Position numbers and translations under genes: made by a program. Positions 3,220 through 59,566 of a DNA stretch of 64,000 nucleotides are shown one piece after another (positions within the stretch are counted from its first letter, which is position 1; every line of letters starts with the position of its first letter). This DNA comes from an uncultured virus (IMG/VR IMGVR_UViG_3300046692_000582) (Duplodnaviria; Heunggongvirae; Uroviricota; Caudoviricetes): the IMG/VR virus record IMGVR_UViG_3300046692_000582; one strand, given 5' to 3'. The notes beneath the pieces were generated by a model. That model had not been told where the DNA came from. It did not search any database and saw nothing but the letters and a program-made list of their open reading frames with translations.

Positions 3220-3729
3220 ATGCACAACTTTAAAAATGGTCACCTGATCGTCGACGGCACAGCAATTAATGACCTGGACTTTTCTTCATTTCATGTGCTC
3301 ACCGATCTGTCGCAATGGTCCGATAAGTTTTGGATTGCGTTCAGGGCAGCAGTAGCTGAAGGTCACGATGTTTCCTTCAGTGAAATTGACATCAAAAATG
3401 TTAGACGCATTGAGGTTCTTGGTGCTGAATTTGAACTGTTGTTCAATCAGGCATATGAACGTATTTCGCTTGACGAAAGCATGAAAAAGCCAGTGGTCGT
3501 AGATAACAAATCGTACTCTATCATTATGATGTTTGACGTTTATCACACCGGCTGGGATTGTGATAATAAGGGCTATATCGTGGCAACGGATGCAGGGCCA
3601 AAGCTGGTGCTCACCGATCATGGCACTGAGTATTTCGCCTCGGCTAATGAGCTAAAATCGCACATTGCGAATTACCAGGATGCCATCAAAGACATGCAGG
3701 CAGCCATCGGGCTGATTGAGCCTCAATAA
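3220..3729 (+). CDS. hypothetical protein, paralog family A
   Basis: FDVYHTGWDCDNKGYIV..GPKLVLTDHG domain. Confidence 0.75.
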   Translation: MHNFKNGHLIVDGTAINDLDFSSFHVLTDLSQWSDKFWIAFRAAVAEGHDVSFSEIDIKNVRRIEVLGAEFELLFNQAYERISLDESMKKPVVVDNKSYSIIMMFDVYHTGWDCDNKGYIVATDAGPKLVLTDHGTEYFASANELKSHIANYQDAIKDMQAAIGLIEPQ

Positions 3730-3741
3730 AGGAGAGTTGTC

Positions 3742-4203
3742 ATGAAAAATTTGCTTAATGGCGTAGTTGTTTCCCTTCGGGCGTTCTGTTCCAAAGTTAT
3801 ATCTCTCAAAGAGAATGCACCTAATGGCAACTGGATTGACCTGAAAAAATTGAACGAGGATCCCGTTTTTTGCGCGGGCCTTAAAAAGCTATTGATCGAA
3901 CATATTAATCGATTGGCACTCGATACGAGCGTAGAGCAAGGTAATGACAAGAGCGTCATTGAAACAACCTACGTTTGGGAGGAGTGCTTCAAAGTCCATC
4001 GATCTTTTCCAATTTACAGTGAGGGATACGAGTTGAAGAACAAGGGATATGTTGTTTCAACGAAAGAGGGCCCGAAATTTGCCTTGCCTGGACATCTAAA
4101 TTGCTCTTTTGCAAAGATTGAGCAAGTAGAGGCGCTCATTCTTAAGGGCGATAAAGATAACGAAGAAATGAAAGCTGCCCTGGCATGGGTTAAGTCCCGG
4201 TGA
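3742..4203 (+). CDS. hypothetical protein, paralog family A (diverged)
   Basis: AAGGAG SD; FPIYSEGYELKNKGYVV..GPK. Confidence 0.7.
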   Translation: MKNLLNGVVVSLRAFCSKVISLKENAPNGNWIDLKKLNEDPVFCAGLKKLLIEHINRLALDTSVEQGNDKSVIETTYVWEECFKVHRSFPIYSEGYELKNKGYVVSTKEGPKFALPGHLNCSFAKIEQVEALILKGDKDNEEMKAALAWVKSR

Positions 4204-4460
4204 ATCGTTTTCGAACCCCTCTGTTGCGAACGGTATACGACTCGATGATGGCGCGCTATCAAGACCGCCATCGCGAGCTGTTTCTTCCGGATGGGGCAAC
4301 TCACAGAGGCAGTGGCCTTGCGCTGCATTTCTGGAATGGATTCGATGGCGTCAGCATGGGCGGTGGCTTTAAATCGCGATCTGAGCGGCAATCCCCTGCG
4401 TACGCAAGTTGGCGTGCAGGCCAGGATTGCAAGGCTCGTCAAATGTCACAGGAGGCGTAA
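4200..4460 (+). CDS. hypothetical protein
   Basis: GTGA coupling; 86 aa. Confidence 0.6.
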   Translation: MNRFRTPLLRTVYDSMMARYQDRHRELFLPDGATHRGSGLALHFWNGFDGVSMGGGFKSRSERQSPAYASWRAGQDCKARQMSQEA

Positions 4461-5227
4461 TGATGGAAATGACCAATGGAAATTTGATTGTGCAGGGTCA
4501 GCGACTCAGCGAGATCGATCTGGATGCCTACACCGACAGTGACCAGATTTTTTACTTGATTGGCGACATCTGGGCGGCAGTGGAAAAAGCTGAGGGTGCT
4601 GGTGAAATGCCAAAGCAGTCTGGCGATGAGTTGGCCGTGGTCTTTGGTCAGTCGTTTGCCGACAAAATCAGCGCCGTGCGTGAGCGACTGATTGAGGAGC
4701 GCGAATCACAAAAGCTGATTTGCGTGAAAGATATCGAGTACGCCCAAGCGCACCGCTTTCCAATTTACCGCGCAGGTTGGGAAATGGATGGCACCGGCTG
4801 GGTGGTCAAAACTGAATCTGGTTTGAAGCTGGTGATGAGCAATCACGGTCAGAATGCGTTTGTTGATGGCACGGCTCGCCTCAAGGAATTGATCGGCGGC
4901 TATGAGGACGTTATCAAAGGCATGGAGCTTGCCTTGCAGTATTTGGACACTCAAGAGCCACCAAAGCGTTTTGCCAAGGCTGCAATTGACGTCGATGGCA
5001 CGCAACGCAAGGTGATTCATGCTTTTGATGTGCTTTGGTCAGGCTGGGCCTCAGATACCAGGGGGTGGGTGGTTAAAATCGGGCAGATGCTGCGCTTGGT
5101 CATGAGCAGTCATGGCATGCGGGCTTTCTCATCGCCTGAGCAGCTGCACGGGCTCATTCAATCGTATCGCCGGGCCATTGAAGCCACTGACAAGGCAATT
5201 GCACTGTTGGACGTTACAGCGGCCTAG
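4460..5227 (+). CDS. hypothetical protein, paralog family A, two domain copies
   Basis: GGAGG SD; GWEMDGTGWVV..LVMSNHG and GWASDTRGWVV..LVMSSHG. Confidence 0.75.
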   Translation: MMEMTNGNLIVQGQRLSEIDLDAYTDSDQIFYLIGDIWAAVEKAEGAGEMPKQSGDELAVVFGQSFADKISAVRERLIEERESQKLICVKDIEYAQAHRFPIYRAGWEMDGTGWVVKTESGLKLVMSNHGQNAFVDGTARLKELIGGYEDVIKGMELALQYLDTQEPPKRFAKAAIDVDGTQRKVIHAFDVLWSGWASDTRGWVVKIGQMLRLVMSSHGMRAFSSPEQLHGLIQSYRRAIEATDKAIALLDVTAA

Positions 5228-5287: not shown

Positions 5288-5689
5288 ATGCCAAAGAAAA
5301 CCATAGCCCCATCGAATCAAAAGACTGATGAGGATTTTATTGATCTCATGCAGCATGCTTTTCGTTTGAAGAGGCCCTGTGCGGATTGTCCGTTTTTGAA
5401 AGTCGGTGCCATTTCCTTGATGCCAGGGCGACTGGATGGCATCAAGCAAGATCTTCTGGAAAACGATAAACAAGGGTTCCCTTGCCATAAGACAACTCAT
5501 TCGCCACGCGGTGGAGAATTTGATGACGAGGGGGAGTACAAAGCTTCCGGTCACGAATCCATGTGCGCCGGAGCGGCTGCATTTTTGATCAAGCAAGGTA
5601 GGCCGACTGTGGCCATGAGGATGGCCGCTGCGTTTGGCGCAATTGAAATGACTGATTGGGACCAATCGCTCAATCTAATTGCTGACTGA
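5288..5689 (+). CDS. Cys-rich phage/plasmid hypothetical protein
   Basis: PCADCPF, FPCHKT and CAGAA motifs. Confidence 0.7.
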   Translation: MPKKTIAPSNQKTDEDFIDLMQHAFRLKRPCADCPFLKVGAISLMPGRLDGIKQDLLENDKQGFPCHKTTHSPRGGEFDDEGEYKASGHESMCAGAAAFLIKQGRPTVAMRMAAAFGAIEMTDWDQSLNLIAD

Positions 5690-5698
5690 TCAGTTTCA

Positions 5699-5727
5699 TT
5701 GACATGACTGAATTGCAACACTAATAT
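5699..5727 (+). promoter_or_regulatory. sigma70 promoter of leader RNA copy A
   Basis: TTGACA 5699-5704, 17 bp, TAATAT 5722-5727. Confidence 0.7.
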
Positions 5728-5733
5728 TAATCC

Positions 5734-5907
5734 ATTGAATGGATTAATGCAGTCATGCATTAAGACAGCTTTGGCTAGGCGTAGTCACCCTGCTCCCTCT
5801 TTGAGGATGGTTAAAACGCGATTAAACACTCTCCCACATGAATGTCTTCCTGGCCCATGTTGGCGGTAATGAGCAGATCCGGCAAAACATGTGCAATGGA
5901 GCATTAC
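5734..5907 (+). ncRNA. candidate structured 5' leader RNA, copy A
   Basis: collinear homology and covarying stems with 22866-23048(-); shared GGCG tetraloop, GGTTAAAACG and GGCGGTAATGAG. Confidence 0.7.
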
Positions 5908-6792
5908 ATGAACCTAATTGACCGGCTTAATTCCCAAGAAGAGCTTTTTGCTTTTCGTGATCATCTCGCTAACGTCCTTTCTGAAAAGTTGAGTATTCCG
6001 CTTAAGGCGCGCAAGCTTGATGAGTTTGTTTCGGCTGTTGTAGGGGCGGTGAACTTTAACACCGCGTTGGGGATCGTTAATAAGCCCGTGACATCGACGA
6101 TGGATGTCGTAAGGAAATCTGCAATTTCCACAGACAGTAGGGAAAATCTTTTCTCTTCGTTCAATGTTCCTGATGACGTTAGCATTCTTGATGCCTTCTG
6201 GCCAACCAGGAACGACTTGGATGGAGTAACTACTTCAGTCGATGTGATTCATCGCCCAATCATTCAAGCTTTCTTGGTGACCAATGATAATTGCTTGCGC
6301 CAGGAGTTTGATGCAGAGCCGTTCTTTCGAGCGCAGCTCTTGACTGGTGATGAAGAACTTGCTGATACCATTGCTACGTTTATGGCGGCTCGATTCAGGG
6401 TTACTCATGAAGACCTGAATGTGCTTGATTGCCTTGGCCTTCAGAGGTTTGGAATCAATACTATTACAGAGTACGTAAAGTTGAAGGAGTATGTTTCGCC
6501 TACTGCTGAAGAAGCTCCGACCTTCAGTTGGCGCGGTTACTCTGATCGAAATTACGATTGCATCGTTGAGCATGCCTTTCTCATCCAATGGCTGGAAAGA
6601 TGGGGCTATGGAATAATGGCTGATTGGGTTAAATCCGACATGCTGGGGTTTGACTCAATCACCGCTTATCATGAAGACAGTGGTCAAGATCCTGATCTTT
6701 ATTCAAACGCGACTCGGGAAAAGATCATTAAAATGGACTGGCTCCTCAACCGCAAAAAACTCCAACGTCGAGCTAGGTCGATGAGCCGCTGA
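5908..6792 (+). CDS. leader-RNA-associated protein A; N-terminus resembles the PF20066 (Glyoxalase_8)-like helical domain
   Basis: GGAG SD 6 nt before ATG 5908; LKARKLDEFVSAVVGAVNFNTALG; paralog of 22035..22865. Confidence 0.75.
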   Translation: MNLIDRLNSQEELFAFRDHLANVLSEKLSIPLKARKLDEFVSAVVGAVNFNTALGIVNKPVTSTMDVVRKSAISTDSRENLFSSFNVPDDVSILDAFWPTRNDLDGVTTSVDVIHRPIIQAFLVTNDNCLRQEFDAEPFFRAQLLTGDEELADTIATFMAARFRVTHEDLNVLDCLGLQRFGINTITEYVKLKEYVSPTAEEAPTFSWRGYSDRNYDCIVEHAFLIQWLERWGYGIMADWVKSDMLGFDSITAYHEDSGQDPDLYSNATREKIIKMDWLLNRKKLQRRARSMSR

Positions 6793-6897
6793 TCCTAAAG
6801 CACATCGAGCGATCAGCCAGCTGATCGAAGTGGCCAGGGGGCTCCTCTGGTCGCTTCCGGTTCCCTCCTACACCCATCCTCTGAATTGTCATTTACA

Positions 6898-6926
6898 TTG
6901 ACATTTGTACAAAATCTCAATATACT
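6898..6926 (+). promoter_or_regulatory. sigma70 promoter with TTTGTACAAA palindrome
   Basis: TTGACA-TTTGTACAAAATCTCAA-TATACT. Confidence 0.85.
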
Positions 6927-6961
6927 GGCTCCATTCAACGAAATGCATTCAGGAGATGGAC

Positions 6962-7210
6962 ATGAGCAAGACGAACATTACCCTCGCCGAGTACCGTAAG
7001 GCCCTGAAGGCGCTGGGGTATCAAGTGCGCACCAAGCGTAACAGCTCGTTCATCACGGCCACCATCGTGCACAAGGCGTCCGGCGTCAGCTTCCATCCCT
7101 CCGACGTAACCACCGCTGAGTTTCTGGCTGAGCATCGTGCTTTTTACGATTATCGAAATTCTGTCAGCGTGCGTGAAGACGATTCTGATATCGCCATGCG
7201 CGTAATTTAA
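6962..7210 (+). CDS. hypothetical protein
   Basis: AGGAG SD; first gene after the promoter. Confidence 0.7.
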   Translation: MSKTNITLAEYRKALKALGYQVRTKRNSSFITATIVHKASGVSFHPSDVTTAEFLAEHRAFYDYRNSVSVREDDSDIAMRVI

Positions 7211-9353: not shown

Positions 9354-9794
9354 ATGTCCACATCCAAGCTGTCCATCAATAAAACATTCCTGGTTTCCGA
9401 TTACCTTCATCTTCTGACGCTGTGCAAGGCCGTGAAGGACTGCAATCAGTTCAAGGAAGATTGCCTGCAACGATTTTCTTCGGCTGGTGACAAAATGGAG
9501 GAAATCATTGAAGGCTTGAACGAGCAGGCCAACGACGTCGTCCGAAAAATGGATTTTTACCCTCCCAACATTTCGATCAAATTGGCGCGTTTGCGAGCCA
9601 AATCAGGTGGCGGAGAGGATCTGTACGTATCAGTAAGCGTACCATGTATTATGCGTGATACAGCAATGCGTCGAGATTTGATCACAAAAATCGGTCTACT
9701 GCTGGAAACATCACATCCGGACCACGAGTTTGTGGCGCTGGATGAGGATGGCATTTTTCACGCACGCGCAGACGGTCTGGGAATTAAGCCATGA
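9354..9794 (+). CDS. hypothetical protein
   Basis: downstream of TTGACA(9286)-16-TATAAT(9308). Confidence 0.7.
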   Translation: MSTSKLSINKTFLVSDYLHLLTLCKAVKDCNQFKEDCLQRFSSAGDKMEEIIEGLNEQANDVVRKMDFYPPNISIKLARLRAKSGGGEDLYVSVSVPCIMRDTAMRRDLITKIGLLLETSHPDHEFVALDEDGIFHARADGLGIKP

Positions 9795-10393
9795 CCGCAG
9801 CTCAGACAGTTGAGCAGTTGCGCATGGAACATGTGCGCAATCTTGAAGCGCAGATCGCTGAGCTGACTCGAAAAAATACAGACCTCGCCAGCGAGGCGGC
9901 AATGTTGCGAAAGTACGAAACAGAGATCTGTGCTGTTCTACGTGAAAGTGAGCGGGTGGCTGTTAATGCACACCAGAAGCTGGCCAGCGTTGCTAACGCT
10001 CTCGGCTACAAGCCATATGGCGAAATCGCCAAGGGCATCGACACTTACCTGACCGAAGCGAAGCGTCAGGCCAAGCTGTTTGAGAATTCATCACCTTCAT
10101 TCCCGGACACAGATATGGATGGTGTTACCACCATGGTCTTTGTGCCTAAGGCTGTTCGTAAAATCGAATGTCCTTGTTGTTATGGACGGGGCGCAGTGAT
10201 GATTCGAGATCCGGATCCTGAGGATATTGTGTGTCCGACCTGTAAGGGTGAAAAAACCGTTGAGGTTGATCTTCAGGATGGTCAAAAACTCCAGTGCCCT
10301 CGTTGTTTTGGCCAGGGTAAGGTGATGATTCGCGATCCAGAACCGGAGGACTGTGTATGTCCAACGTGCAAGGGTGCAAAATACGTCCAATAG
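9791..10393 (+). CDS. coiled-coil protein with a duplicated DnaJ-type zinc finger
   Basis: two CxxCxGxG-VMIRDPxPED-CPTCKG units. Confidence 0.75.
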   Translation: MTAAQTVEQLRMEHVRNLEAQIAELTRKNTDLASEAAMLRKYETEICAVLRESERVAVNAHQKLASVANALGYKPYGEIAKGIDTYLTEAKRQAKLFENSSPSFPDTDMDGVTTMVFVPKAVRKIECPCCYGRGAVMIRDPDPEDIVCPTCKGEKTVEVDLQDGQKLQCPRCFGQGKVMIRDPEPEDCVCPTCKGAKYVQ

Positions 10394-10435: not shown

Positions 10436-10912
10436 CTACAGGGCAGAGTGAGTCGCTGACTTGCTTTGCTCGTTGTAGAAATGGGCGATGAGATCATTTG
10501 ATATTGGCACATCGTAACCCGCAAATCTAATGGTATCTCTCCAGGGCGTTCCCTCTTTATGCATTGCTGCTGAAAGCGTGATCGCATCAAAACCGGCGTA
10601 TTTTTCGACGACCGACTGCATTACATCCTTTTCGTTTTCAGTGAATTGTCCAGTCCAGCGGTCAGCTTCTGGAATGGATGGAATGGGCTGCGAGCGGTGA
10701 TGGCGCACGGCGTTATAGAGGCAGAGCACAACAGGCCCGAACTCATAGGCCATGACCTGCTCATCGAGCAATGGCCTTCCATGCTTTCCGAGCATGTGGC
10801 CATGCGCGATGTAAGTCATCTTCAAAATTTTCATTGGTGTCGCGCTGGGCCGGGGAGAACTTTTGATCAGATCCAAAAGGTGTTGTGCAACAGCCAGTGA
10901 TTTTAGCCCCAT
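10436..10912 (-). CDS. Panacea/SocA (DUF4065) antitoxin-family protein
   Basis: TPMKILKMTYIAHG..AYEFGPVV..LSAAMHKEGTPW..ISNDLI pattern. Confidence 0.85.
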   Translation of the reverse strand: MGLKSLAVAQHLLDLIKSSPRPSATPMKILKMTYIAHGHMLGKHGRPLLDEQVMAYEFGPVVLCLYNAVRHHRSQPIPSIPEADRWTGQFTENEKDVMQSVVEKYAGFDAITLSAAMHKEGTPWRDTIRFAGYDVPISNDLIAHFYNEQSKSATHSAL

Positions 10913-11269: not shown

Positions 11270-11683
11270 TCAGTCTTCATCTGGAAGCATGATTGTCAGA
11301 ACCGGTTCGTGATTATCACCGGGATGACAGATCATCTTGAGCTTTACTTCCTGGGCTTCGGTAGAGCTTCCCTCCCGGTCGACTCGGGCCAAATCCACCA
11401 TGATCATGCTCCCTGGATTTTTGTGGCTCTTAATTGCGTAGTAGGACATGAACGCCACGTCCCAAAGCCGTCCGCTTTGATCTTGATAGGCGCCAGTTCT
11501 GTCACTGTCCGCGTCCGTCCATTCAACGCAGTCCATCCATGCCGCCCGAGTCATGGCCACTGGAAATTTAAATCCTGCCTCCCGAGCGATCTCGCTGATA
11601 TCCACGAGATCACCATCGGCGATCATTTGGGCGCGTGAATGGCTGGAAATTACGTCATCTGGGCCAAAAATCATGGCGTACAT
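11270..11683 (-). CDS. DUF6573-like plasmid/ICE protein
   Basis: SRAQMIADGDLVD..GFKFPVAMT..GRLWDV..EPVLTIMLPDED. Confidence 0.7.
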   Translation of the reverse strand: MYAMIFGPDDVISSHSRAQMIADGDLVDISEIAREAGFKFPVAMTRAAWMDCVEWTDADSDRTGAYQDQSGRLWDVAFMSYYAIKSHKNPGSMIMVDLARVDREGSSTEAQEVKLKMICHPGDNHEPVLTIMLPDED

Positions 11684-21391: not shown

Positions 21392-21476
21392 GCGCAGGTG
21401 GTGAAATTGGTAGACACGCAGCCTTGAGGTGGCTGTGCCGAAAGGCGTGAGGGTTCGAGTCCCTTCTTGCGCACCA
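21392..21476 (+). tRNA. tRNA-Leu (anticodon GAG)
   Basis: acceptor stem GCGCAGG/CTTGCGC, anticodon arm CAGCC-TTGAGGT-GGCTG, long variable arm, GGTTCGAGT T-loop, encoded CCA. Confidence 0.97.
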
Positions 21477-22034: not shown

Positions 22035-22865
22035 TCACTTTCGGCCAAGGGAGTCAAGAAATTCTACAATCGCGCCCATCTGGGTTGAGTGCACGTCCTC
22101 GCCGATTTTCCCATTGTAGGACCATTGGAAGAGGAGGCCCCTGCGCCCTTCGTTTATGTGTTTGATCACAAACTCAGGTCCCATCATGTACTTGAAGGAG
22201 GCGATGTCCGGCTCATCATCGGAATGGTACAGGGCGTGACTGAACTCATCAACATACTCTTTGAAGCTGGTGACCGGATTAGGATCGTTACGCATCTCCA
22301 ATGCATCCAGCCAGCTCATCATCACTGTGAATCCGCGACTCATGAGCCAATCACGCAGCGCACCCCGATCAATGAAGACCTTGTAGGTGATGTTTTTCGC
22401 ATGGCATTCATCCAAAACGCCAGCAATGATCGCATTCGTTGGGCGTGCAAAGTTGGCTGCCCCAATGCCGGGTGCATTTTCTGGATGATCCAGCCAGGAA
22501 ATCATGAGGTGGAGGTGATTCATTTCTACGCAGTTGTTGAAGAACTCAACGGCGTCGAATGTTGTGGTGCGACCGGCGCCGTTATTGAAGCCGCCGACAC
22601 CTGTCATCAGGGTGGCTGGAATTTGGAAGTACAGCTCCCCTGCTTGCGGAATCACTACTGGGAGCGGGTCAGCAGGCGTAGGTACTTTTGCTGCACACAG
22701 GCCCATGGCCGTGTTGAAATCCGCTGCACCGGCCAATATGGCTGCCAGCTCGTCAACCTTACGAGGTTTGAGGGTCAACATCATTTTTTCAGCCATGACT
22801 TTTTTCACATGGTCACGAAAGTGCAGGAACTCGTCTTGCGATTCAAAGCGTTTGATCATGGTCAT
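22035..22865 (-). CDS. leader-RNA-associated protein B; paralog of 5908..6792
   Basis: GGAG SD; LKPRKVDELAAILAGAADFNTAMG; FDAVEFF; LRDWLMSRGF. Confidence 0.75.
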   Translation of the reverse strand: MTMIKRFESQDEFLHFRDHVKKVMAEKMMLTLKPRKVDELAAILAGAADFNTAMGLCAAKVPTPADPLPVVIPQAGELYFQIPATLMTGVGGFNNGAGRTTTFDAVEFFNNCVEMNHLHLMISWLDHPENAPGIGAANFARPTNAIIAGVLDECHAKNITYKVFIDRGALRDWLMSRGFTVMMSWLDALEMRNDPNPVTSFKEYVDEFSHALYHSDDEPDIASFKYMMGPEFVIKHINEGRRGLLFQWSYNGKIGEDVHSTQMGAIVEFLDSLGRK

Positions 22866-23048
22866 GCTCATTCTCCAGTGCACGCTGATTGTCGGTTCCA
22901 CTCATTACCGCCTGCATGCTTGAGGAAAAAAGCAAGAAAGGAGGAGGATGCAATCCACGTTTTAACCGTCCATCAATGATGGTGAGTGGGGCAGCTTCGC
23001 CAAGCTATCATTGTCCTAAGCTGAACTTGTCAGTCAGTCCTGTTTGAT
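22866..23048 (-). ncRNA. candidate structured 5' leader RNA, copy B
   Basis: homologous to 5734-5907 with compensatory changes; promoter TTGACA(23078-23083)-17-TATTGT. Confidence 0.7.
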
Positions 23049-23131
23049 GGGCTTACAATAGCAGCACCAGCGCTCTCTGTCAACCACAGTGACATTTGTT
23101 AAAATTAAATGAAGAAGAAGTGTTTTTGTCA

Positions 23132-23160
23132 TTGACAGATAAAGTGTATTTTTGTACAAT
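23132..23160 (+). promoter_or_regulatory. sigma70 promoter with TTTGTACAAT overlapping the -10 box
   Basis: TTGACA-17-TACAAT. Confidence 0.75.
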
Positions 23161-58463: not shown

Positions 58464-59042
58464 ATGAACATGACCAAACTCCTTCACGCAAACGGCCCAA
58501 TCGTACAGGACTTGGCCTATGAGGCTGCACGTGCTGCTTGCCAAGTGCTTGATCAGGCCTTTCCGGACAAAGAGGCTGGGGGCATTACCTCTAATTTCCA
58601 GGGGCTGTTGGAGGAAGTCATTATCCACATGCTCAAGGGTCGTTCGGTGCTTGATGCGTCGCGTGGTCACGCCACGTCCCTCAATCGACTGGTGATTGAT
58701 GACTCCGTGTTTGGTGAACCCATGGTGCGTGGCTCGGCATTTTTGGTCACCCTCGGTGTGGATGAAGTCCTGGTGCTTGATCCTGGGCAAGGTGATGCCC
58801 TTCAGATTGAGGACGCTGCCGATCCGTGGTCTGCTTTCCGTCCCATTGAGCAGGCGACCGATGCGTGGATTTCTTTCGAAGTAGCGGCTGAAGCGGCCTT
58901 GAAGTTCTGCCGAATGGCAGGCATGTCGACGTTCGATGTCATCCATTCTCGCATTACGGTGAAGCCGGTTGTGCCTCGCGCCAACGCAGAGTGTGGTTAT
59001 CTGCTCGCTGATCCCTTCAGCAAAACCGAGGAGTCTCGCTAA
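58464..59042 (+). CDS. hypothetical protein
   Basis: AAGGA SD; GITSNFQGLL. Confidence 0.65.
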   Translation: MNMTKLLHANGPIVQDLAYEAARAACQVLDQAFPDKEAGGITSNFQGLLEEVIIHMLKGRSVLDASRGHATSLNRLVIDDSVFGEPMVRGSAFLVTLGVDEVLVLDPGQGDALQIEDAADPWSAFRPIEQATDAWISFEVAAEAALKFCRMAGMSTFDVIHSRITVKPVVPRANAECGYLLADPFSKTEESR

Positions 59043-59566
59043 TGAGTCAGTCGCTGCGCATCCCCAAGCGCCTGTTTCAGGGCGAAGTCATGAACTCAAT
59101 GCTGCTGTCCATGCATGGTTCGTGGGAGCGCCAAAACGAAGCGCTCGACAAATTGGGTTACACTGGTCGCCGGGTTCTTGGTTACAAGTTGCCAGTTTGG
59201 CAGCGAGAAGAAGAGTGGTCGCAAGAGCAGTCCATTCGTTTTATTCAAAGCGTGTATCTGGGCATTGGCTTGGGCACGTTCATGGTCAACCGCTCTTTTC
59301 TGCATGAAGATCTGGATTTGCTGCTGCTGGATGGCCAGCAACGTCTCAGGGCTCTTGAGCGCTACTGGTCGGGCGAGCTGGCCGTTCCGGGCGAGGATGG
59401 TAATGCCTACACATGGAACGAGCTGACCAAGGAAGAGCAAGCTCATTGCTTCCGTATGACCTTTCCATGGATTGACACCAAGTATGAGACTGAGGCCATG
59501 GCGCGTCTGGCTTATAACCTGCTTAACTTTGGTGGCACGCCGCATCGTGAGGATCAGCGCGCTTGA
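59042..59566 (+). CDS. stand-alone DUF262 domain protein
   Basis: LPVWQREEEWS, LLDGQQRL, LNFGG. Confidence 0.8.
   Translation: MSQSLRIPKRLFQGEVMNSMLLSMHGSWERQNEALDKLGYTGRRVLGYKLPVWQREEEWSQEQSIRFIQSVYLGIGLGTFMVNRSFLHEDLDLLLLDGQQRLRALERYWSGELAVPGEDGNAYTWNELTKEEQAHCFRMTFPWIDTKYETEAMARLAYNLLNFGGTPHREDQRA

Follow-up and report, generated by a model that had tools for sequence, protein, structure and literature searches.

A conserved leader of about 175 nt, probably a new cis-acting RNA that controls translation of the gene behind it, was found in two copies in the 64,000-nucleotide stretch analysed here (the window; IMG/VR record IMGVR_UViG_3300046692_000582). Copies A and B each lie between a sigma-70 promoter and the start codon of one of two paralogous genes, whose products are called proteins A and B. 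From the comparison of its sequences the leader is a strong candidate, rather than a proven case, for a real, conserved and structured RNA outside the known families. An earlier interpretation of copy A, made from the letters of the window alone (the sequence-only reading), had proposed a structured cis-regulatory leader. This proposal was strengthened by two more independent sequence types, by the lack of a match in Rfam and by a one-to-one association of leader and gene in 6 of 6 loci.

Copies A (5699-5910, + strand) and B (23083-22863, - strand) are collinear from promoter to start codon and, as had been claimed, could be aligned over 248 columns with a mean column identity of 76%. The promoter proposed for copy A is near-consensus, as is its counterpart in copy B (Table 1); judged from its position, transcription of copy A would start at about 5734. 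Four further loci were obtained by tblastn and pattern scans, namely L001 on plasmid pBASL58, its close metagenome variants L002 and L003, and the divergent metagenome locus L004. The six loci represent four independent sequence types: A and B (the window copies), C (pBASL58 and the two variants) and D (L004). In all four further loci the gene was directly preceded by the leader and a promoter-like site. The leader thus preceded the gene in all six relatives with readable DNA (four independent types), and a homologue lacking it, which the sequence-only reading had named as counter-evidence, did not occur among the six loci examined.

A covariance model of the leader, R1, recovered all six loci with E ≤1e-29 when the window and the loci were searched (next best E 0.16), and it gave one match in the whole of the 904-kb pBASL58 (next best E 0.31). 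In the window, exactly two open reading frames (ORFs) matched a profile built from the N-terminal domain of the encoded proteins, and in pBASL58 one did. Since the matches of R1 and of the profile coincide in the window and in pBASL58, leader and gene are linked one to one, as they are in 6 of 6 loci. The protein-pattern scan of metagenome contigs returned 526 stretches, of which three were confirmed, while none was confirmed among 59 and 86 stretches from viral contigs and 80 from genome contigs. An exact scan for GGTTAAAACG...GGCGGTAATGAG in viral and genome contigs gave no match. A looser RNA pattern picked out at least 118 stretches in viral contigs; 0 of the 80 loci examined matched R1, and these stretches were therefore regarded as chance matches.

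Strong evidence for a folded RNA came from the 5' half of the leader. The helices P2, P3 (5790-5795 with 5871-5876) and P4 were found where the sequence-only reading had placed them, and they hold in the two further types, which come from other records. The arms of P2 read GGCTA/TAGTC in type A, AGCTT/AAGCT in B, CGCTT/AAGCG in C and GATCT/AGATC in D; in a six-row alignment, five of its six pairs were changed on both sides and 97.2% of the cells were paired. P3, which was chosen unprompted by RNAalifold, was paired in 100% of the cells with four of six pairs changed on both sides (CTGCTC/GAGCAG, CCACTC/GAGTGG, CCGCCC/GGGCGG and CCGCTT/AAGCGG in A to D). For P4 (CCTC/GAGG, CCATC/GATGG, GACCA/TGGTC and TACCC/GGGTA) four pairs were counted, of which two were changed on both sides, and 87% of the cells were paired. 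Taken together, the three helices had 95.8% standard pairs in the six-row alignment, compared with 28-43% when the 3' partner was slid by 1-3 columns. Eleven of the 16 pairs were changed on both sides, a value matched by 0 of 500 shuffles, although there are only four independent lineages and the shuffle control ignores their relatedness. The covariation is considered strong for its size, not a formal proof.

The unpaired parts of this region are conserved as well. The GGCG loop of P2 was identical in 6 of 6 loci, within the context UUGGCG in B and C, AGGCG in A and UGGCG in D. The CCC between P2 and P3 was conserved and unpaired, and the unpaired block after P4 read GG(T/C)(T/C)(A/C)AAACG across the types. 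Invariance had been claimed for GGTTAAAACG and GGCGGTAATGAG; both are identical in A and B, but in the other types the former reads GGTTCAAACG / GGCCAAAACG and the latter GAAGTGAAATGGG / GGGCAACAAG. The exact 12-mer occurred at only two sites in the window, those of copies A and B. In each of the four types, the CG(C/T) of the conserved block would be able to pair with the GCG in the loop of P2, although this contact shows no covariation. P1 did not stand as a conserved stem and is only a variable 5' hairpin: a hairpin occupied this position in all four types, but its sequence and length could not be aligned between them, and the GGA...GACA flanks were confined to A and B. Type C has a linker hairpin of its own, GTGTA...TACAC (L001 2871-2888), in which an A-T pair is replaced by a compensatory C-G pair in L002, with a half-changed intermediate in L003.

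Sequence conservation was unevenly distributed over promoter, leader and gene. In the three close type C variants (L001-L003) the leader was 96-98% identical, compared with 90-93% for the upstream gene, 88-94% for the promoter, 92-95% for the N-terminal coding part and 80-95% for the rest of the gene, and it therefore appears to be under purifying selection in these variants. Between types, identities were 52-65% in the leader, 54-58% in the N-terminal coding part and 28-50% over the remainder of the gene, against a shuffled baseline of 47%. The earlier statement that the leader is better conserved than the proteins thus applies to the rest of the gene, but not to the N-terminal coding part, where conservation is about equal. 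The conserved unit of promoter, leader and first 65 codons, followed by a divergent remainder, would also be expected if the constraint acted on the DNA, through operators or through recombination between paralogs with a common gene 5' end, and the leader were not a functional RNA. A perfect 9-bp inverted repeat, TTAATCCAT-TGA-ATGGATTAA (5727-5747), which adjoins P1 and overlaps both the -10 box of copy A and its inferred start, points in the same direction; by its sequence it could be a protein operator, and it has no counterpart in copy B. However, the leader keeps its pairing despite the low identity between types, with 11 of 16 pairs changed on both sides, and the window copies are 17 kb apart on opposite strands. 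Because conservation of DNA does not predict two-sided pair changes, a constraint of this kind is a very improbable explanation.

The 3' half of the leader, overlooked in the sequence-only reading, formed one long rod-like hairpin with the same architecture in all four types when these were folded independently. The base is formed by a CU-rich tract and its pairing partners, GGAG and the spacer between the Shine-Dalgarno (SD) sequence and AUG; the spacer sequence varies by type (AATG with CATT in A, TGCTT with GAGCA in B, GGCT with AGCC in C and GGCTT with AAGCT in D). The AUG takes part as a whole in A and C and with its A alone in B, and it is left out in D. The arms of the helix P6 are CATGTT/AACATG in A, GCATGC/GCGTGC in B, GCATGC/GCATGC in C and GTTGC/GCAGC in D, and the top helix, P6b, is short. 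The 3' strand of P3 lies within the apical loop. P3 thus connects this loop with a strand upstream of P4, so that it is a pseudoknot or else a long-range switch helix that takes the place of P6. After the alignment had been fitted to the hairpin by model R2, which biases the pair counts upwards, 85.2% of the hairpin cells were paired, compared with 37-51% after sliding, and 5 of 15 pairs were changed on both sides, which was reached by 1 of 500 shuffles. The previously proposed P5 (AACA/TGTT in A, TGCA/TGCA in B) was abandoned: its 3' strand is the 5' strand of the better-supported P6, and its positions do not align between types. P5 may belong to the alternative fold described below.

The ribosome-binding site (RBS) is predicted to be buried in this hairpin. 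The probability that the SD is unpaired was 0.013 in copy A and 0.006 in copy B, whereas 77 control genes of the window had a median of 0.38. The predicted cost of opening SD and AUG was 5.7, 3.6, 4.9 and 2.2 kcal/mol in types A, B, C and D, respectively. When the SD was forced open, types B, C and D folded with P3 as a nested long-range helix and with a local hairpin (CCGGGC/GCCCGG in D, for example) that keeps the anti-SD tract in its loop. Two folds are thus predicted whose energies are similar; the SD is buried in one and free in the other, which is the layout of a translational switch. As no stem resembling a terminator and followed by a U run was detected downstream of the leader in scans around copies A and B, control of translation is likelier than attenuation.

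According to the mechanism favoured here, the leader would be transcribed from its own strong sigma-70 promoter and would then control translation of the gene behind it. The default fold would keep the ribosome off the SD (OFF). In the alternative fold, predicted to lie 2-6 kcal/mol higher, the 5' strand of P6 would pair locally and leave the anti-SD tract in a loop, while P3 would close the domain and the SD would be freed (ON). The conserved P2 loop, P3 and the AAACG block would provide the sensing surface that tips the balance between OFF and ON. A metatranscriptome contig spanned 5750-6198 in one piece, with 0 listed differences in the leader (from 5750) and six in the coding part. This contig of an RNA library bridges leader and gene; it cannot show the transcript start, and DNA carry-over is possible. 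The uncovered parts of 5400-7000 in sequencing runs X2-X4 were uninformative, and the small share of X4 does not point to a habitat.

Besides the small number of lineages and the fitted alignment mentioned above, several points weigh against translational control by this leader. The SD is equally buried in 5-6% of the control genes, the folding energy of the whole leader is ordinary (z -0.62 and +0.59), and the 3' hairpin was modestly better than shuffles in three of the four types (z -1.2, -1.9, -4.4 and -1.25). P6b is poorly kept, with 64.7% of the cells paired, and the ON fold is a thermodynamic prediction without covariation. The six loci cover a small part of the family, the upstream DNA of about 50 other members lying outside the comparison, and the transcription start was deduced from the promoter sequence, not mapped. 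No trigger was found for the leader. Simple promoter scans detected no opposite-strand promoter inside leaders A and B, and no conserved leader peptide was found; the upstream frames vary from type to type both in length and in frame. In particular, the idea that such a peptide ends at TAATGA in A and B was rejected, as the frames differ and type D has no stop codon there.

The failure to find a trigger would suit a constitutive element without any switch, which might protect the 5' end, set the half-life of the mRNA, damp a very strong promoter or act as an RNA thermometer. The 5'-terminal hairpin of all types agrees with such a role, as does the anti-SD helix, which is imperfect, rich in U-G and U-A pairs and opened for 2-6 kcal/mol. 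This explanation is nevertheless unlikely, and it accounts neither for the invariant GGCG loop and the AAACG block nor for the strictly covarying six pairs of P3, which connect the 5' domain with the apical loop.

Searches for known RNA families were in line with a new element. The whole window was searched with cmscan against Rfam 15 (4227 models), and at gathering score only a tRNA at 21392-21473 was returned, with nothing in the leader. At E ≤10 the region 5650-5960 gave three matches, all with E ≥1.4 and at most 16.4 bits compared with gathering scores of 40-57, and no family of self-cleaving ribozymes was among them. Of three matches in the pBASL58 locus, all at chance level, none lay within the leader. 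The earlier failure to assign the leader to a known riboswitch or ribozyme therefore holds for Rfam 15 as a whole. Absence of a family match is also what a new riboswitch class for a small molecule or an ion would show, in which P2-P4 and the unpaired blocks would form the aptamer and the ligand would shift the 3' half between its folds. The generic riboswitch layout, a covariation-supported conserved 5' domain with an expression platform, is present, and the pseudoknotted 5' domain, the SD-sequestering platform, the invariant unpaired purine-rich blocks and the small predicted energy gap fit it. On the other hand, the regulated genes are fast-evolving ORFans without metabolic or transport signature, the distribution is very narrow (one gene family on megaplasmid-sized replicons), and the gene context suggests no ligand. 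A riboswitch is an unlikely explanation.

The leader with translational control is preferred to these alternatives. Proteins A and B have their first 66 residues in common (28 of 66 identical, E 1e-16) and only scattered motifs further on; their overall likeness is as weak as previously noted, since they can be aligned only in the N-terminal part. By sequence they constitute an ORFan family with 65 conserved N-terminal residues. The N-terminal profile gave 60 matches among representative proteins at E ≤1e-3 and 43 at E ≤1e-10. Two of the 60 were probable repeat proteins, and in all others the domain was located at the extreme N terminus. Total lengths in the family ranged from 53 to 390 aa, nearly all being 151-390 aa, and the C-terminal parts were very divergent, with common motifs such as FDAxxYF and DWL. 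The source names that were seen read 'hypothetical protein' throughout.

An AlphaFold2 model of protein A (predicted local distance difference test 80.3) consisted of a four-helix N-terminal domain and a mixed alpha/beta remainder. Foldseek found no match to this model in the PDB at E ≤0.001. VIA-align reached a best Z of 5.1 with the whole model and of 4.0 with the N-terminal domain alone, and no solved fold was matched. Nothing usable on protein function came from Pfam, PHROGs, NCBIfam and PADLOC, a word-index homology search returned only the protein itself, and the ESM Atlas contributed only 'hypothetical' clusters with scores of at most 0.78.

A resemblance of the N-terminal domain to PF20066 (Glyoxalase_8) had been noted by eye. 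It is weak: 4 of 57 family members matched in register (profile positions 4-62), but with 17.7-20.0 bits they remained under the curated cut-off of 23.7 bits. In proteins A and B neither PF20066 nor any other Pfam family was detected at E ≤1, and hhalign of the N-terminal alignment with a true PF20066 protein of pBASL58 gave a probability of 0.4%. Three true PF20066 proteins are encoded elsewhere in pBASL58, and R1 found no leader at them. These proteins (L007, L008 and L009) comprise 147, 328 (261 from the first start codon) and 433 aa, their C-termini are unrelated, and their similarity to PF20066 is limited to about the first 50-65 of the 143 model positions. The sequences suggest that the N-terminal helical module is a mobile domain. 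No paper mentioning PF20066 was found in a limited literature collection that included work on pMPPla107.

It is hypothesized that the conserved N-terminal domain binds RNA. A protein is the leading guess for the trigger, with the gene's own N-terminal domain as the first candidate (autoregulation), although this guess is held with clearly less than even confidence. Among the candidate triggers a protein partner is ranked first, followed by a small ligand, a constitutive or thermal role and, last, an antisense or leader-peptide scheme like that of the I-complex plasmids. It is conceivable, if rather doubtful, that the leader and the 65-residue domain are a dedicated RNA-protein pair, or that the 5' domain serves as aptamer in a riboswitch class that is new and restricted to megaplasmids. 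If the former were true, a new pseudoknotted RNA fold would be combined with a new helical RNA-binding domain, and each member would set its own translation while its C-terminal part evolves freely.

Several observations point to the replicon on which the leader resides. At the DNA level, neither the locus nor 20 kb of the window had a blastn match among plasmids and phages. Few of the 87 window ORFs scanned against Pfam could be assigned to any family; those found were an SohB-type S49 peptidase, an S26 signal peptidase, SocA/Panacea, DUF6573, DUF2790, helix-turn-helix and the GmrSD N-terminal domain. The SohB homologue of the window was nearest (52.7%) to SohB of 480-640-kb Pseudomonas megaplasmids. 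In a tblastn search of plasmids with A, B and P0005, the only plasmid encoding a relative of proteins A and B was pBASL58 from Pseudomonas sp. Leaf58, which is typed as MPF_I. Other family members were located on contigs of up to 0.94 and 1.06 Mb, and one contig of 1.06 Mb holds two. On account of the SohB closeness, the relative on pBASL58 and the family members on contigs of about 1 Mb, the window is read as part of a megaplasmid-like replicon. A paper titled on a family of Pseudomonas megaplasmids treats pBASL58 together with pMPPla107.

Megaplasmids of the pMPPla107/pBASL58 type carry mostly genes of unknown function, and their control is almost unknown. The leader would be a compact regulatory RNA with clear compensatory changes, tied to a single fast-evolving family and present in the cultured and non-pathogenic strain Pseudomonas sp. 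Leaf58, and with it the known structured RNAs of bacteria would gain a new family. Knowing its trigger would give a first handle on the role of the family and on the time at which the plasmid switches it on.

Table 1. Positions of the elements of leader copies A and B and of the genes behind them (window numbering)
Element	Position	Strand	Sequence and remarks
Copy A sigma-70 promoter	5699-5727	+	TTGACA (5699-5704), 17-nt spacer, TAATAT (5722-5727); 10 of 12 matches
Copy A P1, variable 5' hairpin	5744-5763	+	TTAATGCA-GTCA-TGCATTAA
Copy A P2 hairpin	5772-5787	+	TGGCTA/TAGTCA; GGCG loop 5778-5781
Copy A P3, 5' strand	5790-5795	+	CTGCTC; pairs with 5871-5876; preceded by invariant CCC
Copy A P4 hairpin	5796-5806	+	CCTC-TTT-GAGG; adjoins P3 directly
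Copy A conserved unpaired block	5809-5818	+	GGTTAAAACG
Copy A anti-SD strand, CU-rich	5837-5850	+	CATGAATGTCTTCC; pairs with GGAG, spacer CATT and ATG in the minimum-energy fold
Copy A P6/P6b, upper 3' hairpin	5856-5891	+	CATGTT..AACATG, CGG..CCG; apical loop TAATGAGCAGAT 5867-5878
Copy A P3, 3' strand	5871-5876	+	GAGCAG; within apical loop of 3' hairpin
Copy A SD, spacer and start codon	5898-5901 (SD), 5908-5910 (start)	+	GGAG, ATG
Protein A	5908-6792	+	294 aa; helical N-terminal domain (residues 1-65) conserved, remainder divergent
Copy B sigma-70 promoter	23055-23083	-	TTGACA-17-TATTGT
Copy B P1 hairpin	23016-23037	-	CTGACTGA...TCAGCTTAG
Copy B P2 hairpin	22992-23007	-	TAGCTT-GGCG-AAGCTG; loop 22998-23001
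Copy B P3, 5' strand	22984-22989	-	CCACTC
Copy B P4 hairpin	22970-22982	-	CCATC-ATT-GATGG
Copy B conserved block	22958-22967	-	GGTTAAAACG
Copy B anti-SD strand	22924-22934	-	TGCTTTTTTCC
Copy B P6/P6b hairpin	22880-22919	-	GCATGC..GCGTGC; apical loop holds P3 3' strand GAGTGG (22898-22903)
Copy B SD and start codon	22873-22876 (SD), 22863-22865 (start)	-	GGAG, ATG
Protein B	22035-22865	-	276 aa; paralog of protein A

The window has a G+C content of 48.7%, and its small ORFs are densely packed in both orientations. Other near-consensus sigma-70 promoters (11 of 12 matches) were located at 6898-6926 (+) and 23132-23160 (+) before neighbouring small ORFs, and by their sequences stand-alone strong promoters seem to be the rule in this region. 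A tRNA-Leu(GAG) gene is present at 21392-21476 (+), about 560 bp past the stop codon (22035) of the copy B gene. Three neighbouring ORFs at 3220-3729, 3742-4203 and 4409-5227 (+) contain a common repeated module without Pfam match and look like a tandem array of paralogs; the motif is approximately GW..D..G(Y/W)VV.T..G.KLV...HG followed by a helical tail, with two copies in the third ORF. A protein with a SocA/Panacea antitoxin domain is encoded two genes away from a DUF6573 protein (10436-10912 (-) and 11270-11683 (-)), and both may form a toxin-antitoxin-like pair. The ORF at 9791-10393 (+) has two DnaJ-type CxxCxGxG zinc-finger repeats under the Pfam cut-off, visible as PxCxGxG...MIRDPxPED. 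At 59042-59566 (+), a short ORF matched the GmrSD N-terminal (DUF262-type) domain (E 2.5e-11); its product could be a type IV restriction enzyme in split form or a piece of one. In type C, an RtcB RNA ligase gene is located two genes upstream of the leader copy (L001 865-2085, L002 663-2084). A link between RtcB and the leader was rejected, as no RtcB was present among the window ORFs scanned, and the proximity is probably coincidental.

Among known systems, the repZ/repA leaders of the I-complex plasmids (IncI, IncB and IncK) and of IncL/M come nearest to the present leader. Their translation needs a long-range pseudoknot, a leader peptide opens an inhibitory hairpin, and the antisense RNAI or Inc RNA binds a hairpin with a GGCG loop. 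The system is reportedly the subject of papers by Asano and Mizobuchi in 1998 and Athanasopoulos in 1999. The present leader is likewise plasmid-borne and has a GGCG-loop hairpin (6 of 6 loci, with UUGGCG in B and C), a long-range helix from the 5' part to the RBS-proximal hairpin and an RBS within a stem. Control of the same style, by pseudoknot, leader peptide and antisense RNA, might also be inferred from the MPF_I type of pBASL58 and from short upstream reading frames that, in A, B and C, run through the anti-SD strand and terminate within the apical loop. However, the long-range helix uses the strand after the hairpin instead of the GGCG loop, and none of the four types has a CGCC partner between P6 and SD. 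The upstream frames vary (40 or 20, 17 and 9 codons, none ending there in D) and have no SD, no leader peptide is conserved, simple scans showed no opposite-strand promoter-like site inside the window leaders, and the downstream gene is not a replication initiator. Such a scheme is decidedly unlikely.

RNA thermometers such as ROSE and fourU resemble the leader in a U/C-rich tract that pairs imperfectly with the SD, but they have neither a covarying long-range helix nor conserved loops. The only match to ROSE_3 had 12.5 bits compared with a gathering score of 43, and at 5655-5709 it was located upstream of the transcribed leader. The possibility that the leader belongs to a conjugative leading region and is its single-stranded-DNA promoter (Frpo type) was rejected by reasoning, since the copies are on opposite strands and have ordinary double-stranded promoters outside the fold.

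Translational riboswitches with a pseudoknot (SAM-II/SAM-V, preQ1-II/III and guanidine-III) also combine a pseudoknotted conserved sensor with an SD-sequestering helix in a 5' untranslated region behind a promoter. The present leader differs from them in being larger, in having two domains and in preceding a gene family that is not metabolic; for SAM/SAH the best score of the leader region was 13.3 bits compared with a gathering score of 40. In E. coli rpsO/S15 and phage T4 gene 32 the regulator is the encoded protein itself. Although the N-terminal domain found here has no recognised RNA-binding fold (best structural Z 4.0), the leader resembles these two systems in its two predicted alternative folds, which include a pseudoknot near the RBS, and the conserved part of the encoded protein co-occurs with it.

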